A stretch of 64,000 bases of DNA from an uncultured candidate division Zixibacteria bacterium (lineage in GTDB: Bacteria > Zixibacteria > MSB-5A5 > RBG-16-43-9): the NCBI GenBank assembly GCA_963713865.1, contig OY970208.1, forward strand, positions 2,016,001 to 2,080,000, given 5' to 3'. Shown piece after piece: positions 46,043-48,081 of the stretch. How positions within the stretch are numbered: position 1 is the first letter of the stretch; every line of letters starts with the position of its first letter. The notes under the pieces were generated by a model. The model was not told the DNA's origin, did not search any database, and saw only the letters and a program-made list of their open reading frames with translations. The position numbers and the translations under genes were made by a program.

Positions 46043-46327
46043 TTTATTCTTTCTGCTCAAAGCAGTAACCAGGATAAAACACAGAATTTATCTTTTATCC
46101 GAACCTTTTCCCCTAATCAAAAGTCTCAAAATTTTGTTGCCTTTCTTAAATAATCTAACTATAATAAAATTAAAGTTTAGAGTGAACTGGCATCTCGAAC
46201 AAACGCTAAACTAACAATCCGCCTCAGGCGGACAAACTGTATTCGGAGGAGAAGTTTTTGTCTTAAATAGGTTATTATAAAATTTTAAACCGTTTGGCAT
46301 TTTTCTCCAAACGCCAAACTGTATTCC

Positions 46328-46438
46328 GGAGAGATGTCCGAGTCCCGCCTTCGACGGGACAAGCTGGTCTAAGGAGCACGCCTGGTCATCCCGCCAAAAG
46401 CGGGAGATCCTGCTGAAAGCGGTGAAGAGAGCGTGTAG
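46328..46438 (+). pseudogene. 5' partial tRNA-Ser copy with hairpin inserts in the D-loop (46343-46363) and anticodon (46386-46427)
   Basis: Removing the two inserts gives GGAGAGATGTCCGAGCTGGTCTAAGGAGCACGCCTGGAGAGCGTGTAG, identical to the start of the tRNA at 46446. Confidence 0.85.
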
Positions 46439-46445
46439 GAGATAC

Positions 46446-46537
46446 GGAGAGATGTCCGAGCTGGTCTAAGGAGCACGCCTGGAGAGCGTGTAGCCCTTAA
46501 AAAGGGCTCCTGGGTTCGAATCCCAGTCTCTCCGCCA
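46446..46537 (+). tRNA. tRNA-Ser(GGA)
   Basis: GGAGAGA/TCTCTCC acceptor stem, CACGC-CTGGAGA-GCGTG anticodon arm, long variable arm, GGTTCGAATCC, GCCA. Confidence 0.95.
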
Positions 46538-46788: not shown

Positions 46789-48081
46789 GTGGAGAATAAA
46801 GGATTAGAGTCAAGGTTAGATAATATGATAAATATTAAAGATGAAATAGTAAGGAATATTTTGGACAGCATGTCGGTAACTTCAGAGGGAAATATAGAAT
46901 GGTATAATTTTCAGTCATTAAAATATAATCACTATTCATTATTGCTGTTATCTGATTTGATGCTAGATAATAAATTTCGATCAAGACTTAACGCTTTAAG
47001 ATACTATTTTACTTCCGGAAATGACACCTATTGGGGGATTGAATTAACTTCAGTCTTCAAACAAATGAAGATGGAGAATAAATCAACATTTATAGATTTC
47101 AAGCAAAATTTGGATTCATTACTGCAAAATATTGAGGAGAGTTCAAGACCAGTAAAGTATGAACTGTATTATCCACTAAACATAAAAACAAACAACAAAA
47201 TAGAATCTATTAAATTTAGAGATATTCAAATAGAGATAAAAGATTACGAAGAAGTTAAAAATATATTAGAAAACCCAGCGCTCGAAAAAGAATTAGATTC
47301 TGAAAGACTAACAAAATCAAAATACAAATACATTAAAGTTACATTATGGTCTAGAAATCAGAATTATGCAGAACAAGTTGCAACAAAATACGCCAATTTG
47401 ATCTTGGGTTTTATAGCATATTCACAGAATTACGGACATGCCTTAATTGCGATTGTGGGAATCCCTAAGGAATTAACACGATTAAAACTGAACTATATTT
47501 TTGCTTTCAAGGAGGAATCTTACTCGGGATATTATTATTTTGAAGATAAATCTGACAATAGAGAGACTTATAATTTAAGTGATGATGATATTAGAAACTT
47601 GAATACTTTTGTAAAGCAATTTAATCAAGCGAATAAAAAAAAACAAGAGGTTTTGTTTAAAACAATAAGTTTATATTACTCTGGCTTAACCGAAAAGGAA
47701 ATAAACTACTCTTTTTTGAATTTTTGGAAATCCTTGGAGTTTATTACACTTAAAAAAAAAGGAACACCGCATTTAGAAATTACCAGAAGACTGAAGTCAA
47801 TTATAAAAAATCTAACACCTCTTGATGAATATATAATTGACAGGATTTATTCACTTAGAAATAATTTGATTCATGATGGAGCTTATGATATTTCTCAATA
47901 TGATAGGAATCTCTTAAAAACTTACACGGAAGGTATGATTAAATTTTTCATGTTTCAATTAAGCAAATATGAAATTCAGGAAATACAAACTATTTTCCAA
48001 TTCCTACAGAAGGATAAGGTAACACTTACTAAGAGTAAAGATTTACTTGATTTTGTTATTAAGTTAAAGGGAGAAAGATAA
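46789..48081 (+). CDS. HEPN-domain protein (ApeA-like architecture), putative defence RNase
   Basis: C-terminal FLNFWKSLE...YSLRNNLIHDG (Rx4H); markedly AT-rich; lies just after a tRNA. Confidence 0.7.
   Translation: MENKGLESRLDNMINIKDEIVRNILDSMSVTSEGNIEWYNFQSLKYNHYSLLLLSDLMLDNKFRSRLNALRYYFTSGNDTYWGIELTSVFKQMKMENKSTFIDFKQNLDSLLQNIEESSRPVKYELYYPLNIKTNNKIESIKFRDIQIEIKDYEEVKNILENPALEKELDSERLTKSKYKYIKVTLWSRNQNYAEQVATKYANLILGFIAYSQNYGHALIAIVGIPKELTRLKLNYIFAFKEESYSGYYYFEDKSDNRETYNLSDDDIRNLNTFVKQFNQANKKKQEVLFKTISLYYSGLTEKEINYSFLNFWKSLEFITLKKKGTPHLEITRRLKSIIKNLTPLDEYIIDRIYSLRNNLIHDGAYDISQYDRNLLKTYTEGMIKFFMFQLSKYEIQEIQTIFQFLQKDKVTLTKSKDLLDFVIKLKGER

Follow-up and report, generated by a model that had tools for sequence, protein, structure and literature searches.

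A tRNA-Ser(GGA) gene in a Zixibacteria genome preceded by the probable remains of a small GIY-YIG nuclease cassette

The tRNA-Ser(GGA) gene and its interrupted 5' copy

The window analysed here is a stretch of 64,000 nt from an uncultured Zixibacteria bacterium (assembly GCA_963713865.1, contig OY970208.1, positions 2,016,001 to 2,080,000 of the forward strand), and positions without a contig prefix are counted from its first letter. It contains an intact tRNA-Ser(GGA) gene that reaches 51.8 bits with the Rfam tRNA model and is the sole gene with a GGA anticodon among the 49 tRNA genes of this 2.72-Mb genome (G000). A copy of the first 48 nt of this gene, broken by two hairpin-forming inserts, lies immediately upstream (Table 1). 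Gene and copy agree without mismatch over 47 aligned positions, distributed over three exact blocks: 46327-46342 equals 46445-46460 (tRNA nt 1-15), 46362-46385 equals 46459-46482 (nt 14-37) and 46427-46438 equals 46482-46493 (nt 37-48). These blocks confirm the layout described in an earlier note on this DNA, namely a 48-nt 5' copy that ends 7 nt before the intact gene, its D-loop interrupted by a 21-nt hairpin and its anticodon by a double hairpin of 42 nt.

The larger insert is made of two related 21-nt units with a repeat register of 19 nt and splits the second from the third anticodon base. Both inserts form hairpins in the predicted fold, in which the anticodon stem of the copy closes round the double hairpin, and the region as a whole folds better than shuffled versions of it (z -4.4 as DNA, z -3.4 as RNA). 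The copy ends at nt 48, without T arm and 3' acceptor strand. No Rfam family, neither tRNA nor intron, matches 46328-46438, and up to an E value of 1 the only matches besides the tRNA are sX4 and a plastid 3' UTR, both below threshold and chance-like. A tRNA intron (group I or bulge-helix-bulge) is ruled out, since the copy is incomplete past nt 48 and Rfam finds no intron.

Judged from its hexamers, the promoter-like element in Table 1 is probably the promoter of tRNA-Ser(GGA). As it lies upstream of all other parts, everything between it and the tRNA would then be 5' leader.

Table 1 Features of the tRNA-Ser(GGA) region in window positions
Feature	Position	Strand	Basis or remark
Promoter-like TTGCCT-17-TATAAT	46137..46165	+	10/12 matches; same hexamers and spacing in same-genus genome G001
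Native leader copy 1 (CAAACGCTAAACT..GTATTC)	46200..46245	+	identity with G001 ends at 46244
Putative 3'-end relic of a GIY-YIG gene (GGAGGAGAAG....TAA)	46246..46266	+	alignment to ORF tails of relatives
Native leader copy 2, without hairpin	46307..46327	+	repeat analysis; directly abuts the tRNA in the empty allele
Disabled 5' copy of tRNA-Ser(GGA), nt 1-48	46328..46438	+	repeat blocks; homologous units at 10 other loci
21-nt hairpin insert in D-loop, after tRNA nt 15	46343..46363	+	letters TCCCGCC..GGGACAAG; placement of AG ambiguous
42-nt double hairpin in anticodon (nt 36-38), after nt 37	46386..46427	+	second hairpin degenerate
7-nt joint GAGATAC, copy to intact tRNA	46439..46445	+	position of the GIY-YIG gene in relatives
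Intact tRNA-Ser(GGA), encoded CCA	46446..46537	+	ARAGORN, Rfam
430-aa strain-specific ORF, no part of the feature	46789..48081	+	no family match

Interrupted copies and GIY-YIG genes at related loci

The locus was searched against 61 related genomes, and the best 30 tRNA-Ser(GGA) loci, our own among them, were examined. Interrupted 5' copies were found at 11 of these 30 loci (our own and 10 others), which span three families of the order and hold 15 units, all upstream of an intact tRNA gene. An insert of 21-42 nt follows nt 37 in 14 of the 15 units, whereas in the last one (L006) the insert is a variant and follows nt 33. Ten units have an insert of 21-22 nt behind nt 15, which the other five lack. 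The letters of the D-loop hairpin (CGCCTTCGACGGGACAAG) are common to our locus, L011 and L019 in near-identical form. Over the tRNA-derived parts of these units, 23 of 694 positions deviate from the resident tRNA, a near-identity that could reflect function, or else recency or gene conversion. Two or three units are stacked in tandem at L007, L010 and L019, and repeated invasion therefore happens.

An ORF lies between copy and intact tRNA at seven of the 11 loci and is missing from four, ours included. Five of the seven ORFs are intact, encode 79-84 aa with 75-78% mutual identity and match the Pfam family GIY-YIG (E 3e-19 to 4e-16) over residues 1-66; the other two carry one frameshift each. 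GIY-YIG is the only Pfam family found in them, the NCBIfam group I intron endonuclease model gives 18.5 bits at a cut-off of 56, and the closest solved structures are the UPF0213 proteins BH0048 and EF2693 (the Ssn clade being cd10448).

By homology, 46328-46445 is the ORF-less form of a unit that in its complete state consists of a disabled copy, a predicted mini nuclease gene and the intact tRNA. The features that define such a cassette were taken from the relatives' loci. Our locus shares with them the partial tRNA copy with GC-rich mini-hairpins beside an intact tRNA, and has a mere 7 nt in the place of the GIY-YIG ORF of about 80 codons. For lack of this ORF it is classed as a cassette relic rather than a complete member, its putative membership of the group being based on homology over 111 nt, 48 of which are tRNA.

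Empty, full and decayed alleles

The genome is 92.6% identical to that of the same-genus relative G001 over 1497 nt upstream of the tRNA, the similarity ending at 46244. G001 is empty: after the position equal to 46244 its leader runs directly into the tRNA. Further alleles were found on contigs from four metagenome runs (X1-X4), placed at 88% likeness, which represent relatives and not the strain itself. At most 0.42 of the sampled words of the stretch are present in any one run. One contig (X1 record 5) carries the same ORF-less form as the window and bridges 46170-46491 with 10 differing letters. A 15-kb contig (X3 record 16) joins 46326 to 46445, lacking exactly the 118-nt unit, and another (X4 record 24) is likewise empty, the skipped unit measuring 118-124 nt across the X3 and X4 contigs. 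In X4 record 23 the interrupted copy is followed by CGAAAAA-ATGTACTATGTATATG, which is the start of a GIY-YIG gene (MYYVY...). The unit is thus present or absent as a whole among close relatives, with G001, X3 and X4 providing empty sites, and empty, full and decayed alleles coexist in nature. Alignment of the locus across relatives had been proposed in the earlier note; as described, it yields the interrupted copy at 11 of 30 loci and none in G001.

The DNA upstream of the copy has a history of its own. The repeated parts 46200-46245 and 46307-46327 are native leader (CAAACGCyAAACT..GTATTC), and the 44 nt from 46200 to 46243 match further sites in G000, G001 and other relatives. A still shorter tRNA copy had been reported at 46234-46252, behind a mini-hairpin at 46217. 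The hairpin is there (46217-46233, 7 pairs), but it is part of leader copy 1, occurs in the leader of G001 as well before a tRNA without extra copy, and is not followed by a tRNA copy: the actual letters at 46234-46252 are AAACTGTATTCGGAGGAGA, unlike those first read, and the repeat at that place is native leader.

The leaders of the Ser-GGA, Ser-GCT, Val-GAC and Gly-TCC tRNAs in this genome have repeats of the CAAAC/TAAAC type and end with AAACTGT(A/C)TT before the tRNA.

The most plausible reading of GGAGGAGAAG..TAA at 46246-46266 is the end of an earlier nuclease gene that has since been deleted, with no third tRNA copy involved. The relatives' ORFs terminate in ...KGGEAF(R/K)KLL..., and the putative relic aligns with these GGEAF.. 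tails. The X1 contig has 11 extra letters behind 46249, which extend the reading to GGEAFKKFLS-stop, and a loose end from X4 reads AFKQLLS-stop. In G000 alone the match amounts to about 10-12 nt, and the reading as an older relic depends on these related contigs.

Taken together, we consider it likely that two insertions of a small selfish cassette specific for tRNA-Ser(GGA), one after the other, have left the decayed sequence at 46200-46445. The proximal and younger cassette would have had its nuclease gene deleted down to 7 nt. The distal and older one would have lost its tRNA copy, leaving approximately the last seven codons (ten in the related strain), the stop and the spacer. The 5' copy would then be a fossil at the DNA level that is probably transcribed within a long 5' leader and subsequently discarded.

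The downstream DNA and a possible role of the copy

The 430-aa ORF downstream of the tRNA had been taken for a HEPN RNase gene, an assignment that is not confirmed. Comparison with Pfam, NCBIfam and PADLOC gave no family and no HEPN match. The ORF has an RNNLIH motif near the C-terminus (the HEPN motif being Rx4-6H), and among its protein-atlas neighbours with a family HEPN_Apea makes up only 15-17% of members at scores of 0.88-0.90, which is a weak lead. No homologue was found at any of the 29 relatives' loci, which reach about 1.5 kb downstream. Beyond the tRNA gene, the sequence bears no relation to that of G001, and the region 46789-48081 may be a variable island.

This downstream difference, together with the fact that tRNA genes are common integration sites (PMC9897764, accessible part), would be in keeping with the attachment-site duplication of an integrase-borne island, an explanation which, along with an assembly artefact, we regard as extremely improbable. 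The tRNA fragments at integrase attachment sites (Williams 2002, cited in PMC9897764) resemble our copy in being partial and in leaving an intact gene whose function is maintained by the duplicate. They are, however, 3' parts found kilobases from the gene, at the distal end of an integrase-bearing island, whereas the duplicate here is a 5' part with hairpin inserts, 7 nt from the gene and without integrase, and the window contains no second tRNA 3' end (with up to 3 mismatches). An integrase attachment site, which would show a 3' direct repeat together with an integrase island, was therefore rejected. According to the accessible part of the same source, prokaryotic tRNA gene fragments are attributed to CRISPR and integrating elements, and that part mentions neither hairpins nor endonucleases (PMC9897764). 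As to an artefact, mis-assembly being a concern raised in the earlier note, the layout is identical on the independent contig of the related strain (X1 record 5) and recurs at the 10 relatives' loci; mis-assembly is excluded.

It is also possible that the copy is at work today, as part of the tRNA precursor or as a tRNA-like decoy, for example for an anticodon nuclease or in processing control; the earlier note had suggested a co-transcribed decoy tied to the supposed HEPN RNase. The copy lies downstream of the likely tRNA promoter and is hence probably transcribed, its tRNA-derived parts are identical at 47 of 47 positions, the region folds better than shuffles, and the hairpin stems of comparable copies at tRNA-Val(GAC) covary (see below). 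The identity, however, is explained equally by recency or gene conversion, and the copy is absent from G001 and from two related alleles in the metagenome contigs. Moreover, the 3' half of the tRNA is missing from it, no Rfam family matches it, and the neighbouring gene, with its HEPN nature unconfirmed, is not conserved. A function of this kind therefore appears very unlikely, and we retain the view of a decayed cassette.

Mini-hairpins and the copies at tRNA-Val(GAC)

Mini-hairpins of the TCCCGC..GCGGGA type occur 108 times in G000. Nesting within larger hairpins was observed for 33 of the 108, compared with 196 of 2000 random places, and for 12 of them an "empty" paralogous site exists, in comparison with which part of a REP-like hairpin has given way to the mini-hairpin. 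The genome also has nine matches to Y1 transposases. Free movement of hairpins into stem-loops is thus still going on in this genome and may have played a part at the tRNA-Ser(GGA) locus. The suggestion of the earlier note that mini-hairpins target stem-loops thus agrees with the genome-wide picture, but at this locus the hairpins are not separate hits, because the same two sites, partly with the same letters, recur at the loci of 10 relatives. Its idea that the gene was restored by a 5' re-duplication is likewise half right: the tRNA does remain intact thanks to the duplicated 5' part, which, however, belongs to a nuclease-gene unit.

In several REP-like families the mini-hairpin takes the place of the loop together with a portion of the 3' arm, filled and empty sites coexisting in the same genome (e.g. 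C1:97346 vs. 30630 and 1388762 vs. 761740).

An alternative that we consider unlikely is that the hairpins are free mini-elements, each about 21 nt in length, which a resident enzyme (for instance a Y1 transposase of the REP type or a GIY-YIG nuclease) inserted into a dead 5' duplicate already in place, independently of any cassette. The mini-hairpins just described, the Y1 matches and eight small GIY-YIG genes of this genome would provide both the element and the candidate enzymes, and the insert lengths at the locus are multiples of 21. The near-identical units of L002 and L028 differ by the clean presence or absence of the 21-nt D-loop hairpin, which is missing from five of the 15 otherwise similar units. 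Hairpins can therefore be gained or lost singly, and this would fit a free mini-element as well. On the other hand, the same sites with partly the same letters are found together with the ORF in three families of the order, the core letters of the D-loop hairpin occur once in the whole genome, and close relatives have or lack the entire 118-nt unit and not single hairpins. These observations favour insertion of the hairpins as parts of a nuclease cassette.

A related arrangement is found at tRNA-Val(GAC), which in our genome is preceded by a copy of nt 1-27 with a mini-hairpin replacing the anticodon arm (G000:C1:1963798-1963990). Such an ORF-less hairpin copy is present at 11 of 23 relatives' loci (L115-L137), sometimes twice and often with a duplicated leader. 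Its hairpin stems covary (TCCCGC..GCGGGA, TCCCGA..TCGGGA, TCCCCCGCC..GGCGGGGGA). An ORF-bearing form was not seen among the 23 loci, so the ORF is not always traceable, and the pattern gives a hint of independent persistence or spread of units without an ORF.

More speculatively, and with considerable doubt on our part, the ORF-less hairpin-bearing half copies may be non-autonomous members of a new class of DNA parasites specific for tRNA genes. Mini GIY-YIG nucleases would then recognise DNA hairpins in single-stranded tRNA genes and act in trans on hairpin-marked duplicates, much as transposases do on MITEs. This would explain the persistence of ORF-less copies across an order, as at tRNA-Val(GAC), and also the covarying stems and the mini-hairpins that replace parts of other hairpin repeats.

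Partial tRNA copies and small GIY-YIG genes elsewhere in the genome

A search for interrupted copies at the other tRNA genes, also proposed in the earlier note, showed that hairpin-bearing partial copies flank six of the 49 tRNA genes of G000: Ser-GGA, Val-GAC, Asn-GTT (two copies), Gly-TCC (two copies), Ser-GCT and the initiator Met-CAT. The genome encodes eight small GIY-YIG ORFs, seven of which adjoin a tRNA gene or tRNA fragment. Six of the eight stand between an intact tRNA gene, which they follow directly, and a copy or fragment (Gly-TCC, Ala-TGC, Ser-GCT and three times Met-CAT), one is found beside a 19-nt tRNA-Ser fragment, and for the last one no tRNA-like neighbour was detectable. 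As these eight genes share only 34-44% identity with the Ser(GGA) type, no cognate enzyme is left for the tRNA-Ser(GGA) locus.

The most elaborate arrangement follows the initiator tRNA-Met(CAT), with three identical tandem units of 344 bp, each consisting of a GIY-YIG ORF of 76 or more codons and a tRNA-Met copy that is nearly complete and carries mini-hairpins in D-loop and variable region (G000:C1:330682-331789). Behind them stands a fourth, different hairpin-bearing tRNA-like relic. At G000:C1:1312542-1312948 a GIY-YIG ORF and a tRNA-Ala fragment without anticodon arm directly follow tRNA-Ala(TGC), which itself follows tRNA-Ile(GAT), apparently within the spacer of an rRNA operon.

Association of the nuclease clade with tRNA genes across phyla

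With the five intact ORFs as queries and one genome per species, a wider scan gave 289 relatives; from these, 80 loci were retained. The phyla include Zixibacteriota, Omnitrophota, Patescibacteria, Bacteroidota, Planctomycetota and Acidobacteriota, among others. A tRNA gene is present at 60 of the 80 loci and lies within 150 nt of the ORF at 54. At 40 of the 57 loci with a tRNA gene on the same strand within 250 nt, a partial copy of that tRNA lies beyond the ORF, defined as exact blocks adding up to 18 nt or more on the side of the ORF opposite to the tRNA, and a GC-rich mini-hairpin is found in 34 of these 40 copies. The type of tRNA tracks the lineage of the ORF (Ser-GGA, Glu-TTC, Asp-GTC, Asn-GTT, Pro).

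Relation to known systems and possible mechanism

Two known kinds of element stand behind the cassette design, selfish nucleases of the GIY-YIG family and hairpin repeats. The latter include REP/BIME sequences with their RAYT transposases, to which the present case bears a likeness in its short, multiplying and nested palindromes, the genome having both such repeats and nine Y1 matches. REPs are not known to label disabled copies of tRNAs or to move together with a GIY-YIG gene. Free-standing GIY-YIG homing endonucleases consist of several domains and have a DNA-binding part. Unlike these enzymes of the Seg/I-TevI type, the ORFs described here (79-84 aa) comprise the catalytic domain only and have no separate DNA-binding domain, and we know of no hairpin-disabled duplicate of the target in the Seg design. 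There is also a clear likeness: as described in the accessible part of the source, SegB of phage T4 is a free-standing GIY-YIG homing endonuclease encoded in the tRNA gene cluster of T4, and its gene spreads together with its flanks after cutting of the allele that lacks it (PMC2330249). The alleles with and without the unit reported here fit spread of this type.

A second comparison is with the Ssn proteins, single-domain GIY-YIG nucleases that cut single-stranded DNA beside their own hairpin repeats (NTS/SRM), which also flank their genes (Chenal et al. 2025, PMC11893778, accessible part). The authors of that study note that the order hairpin-gene-hairpin resembles a mobile element. Common to both systems are small single-domain GIY-YIG ORFs with short GC-rich hairpins nearby. 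The Ssn hairpins, however, are dispersed in hundreds of copies and serve in the control of transformation (PMC11893778), whereas those described here are inside a disabled copy of one tRNA that adjoins the intact gene. The word tRNA does not occur in the accessible text of the Ssn paper (PMC11893778), nor does the corresponding part of the 2006 survey of the GIY-YIG family describe an association with tRNA genes (PMC1564403). A search of a paper library gave no description of a GIY-YIG cassette at bacterial tRNA genes with hairpin-disabled duplicates, and the design of a tRNA-nested mini GIY-YIG cassette seems to be previously undescribed in print.

The following mechanism may be envisaged for the cassette. 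The predicted nuclease would cut the cassette-free tRNA gene, probably in the form of single-stranded DNA folded into arms, at the loops that correspond to the hairpin sites. Repair from a cassette-bearing allele would then copy the cassette in, amounting to homing as known for the Seg genes of T4, and the intact tRNA copy would keep the host viable. As to the hairpins, they could be the nuclease's own recognition sites, by analogy with the Ssn nucleases, or they could serve to split the duplicated sequence into pieces of 15, 22 and 11 nt. In either case the duplicate would escape both cutting and loss by recombination with the intact gene.

Among bacterial proteins that still lack an agreed function, single-domain GIY-YIG proteins of the UPF0213/Ssn kind belong to the most common. 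A cassette that inserts at tRNA genes, always accompanied by a hairpin-disabled duplicate, and whose state varies between present, absent and decayed from one close strain to another would provide this clade with a concrete biology, selfish spread at essential and conserved targets, and such cassettes would supply a natural set of nuclease/target pairs. The value of the present locus lies in its allele series and its putative two-generation relic, which would represent the end of the life cycle of a cassette after loss of the nuclease gene and indicates that two rounds of invasion can stack. For genome annotation the relics are a hazard, as they resemble odd tRNA leaders or pseudo-tRNAs.

A different kind of insertion is found at tRNA-Pro(GGG), where an exact 48-nt copy of the 3' part of the gene stands 601 nt downstream (G000:C1:1898360-1899008). 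The interval has no hairpin and holds one small ORF that is not of the GIY-YIG family and has a signal-peptide-like start.
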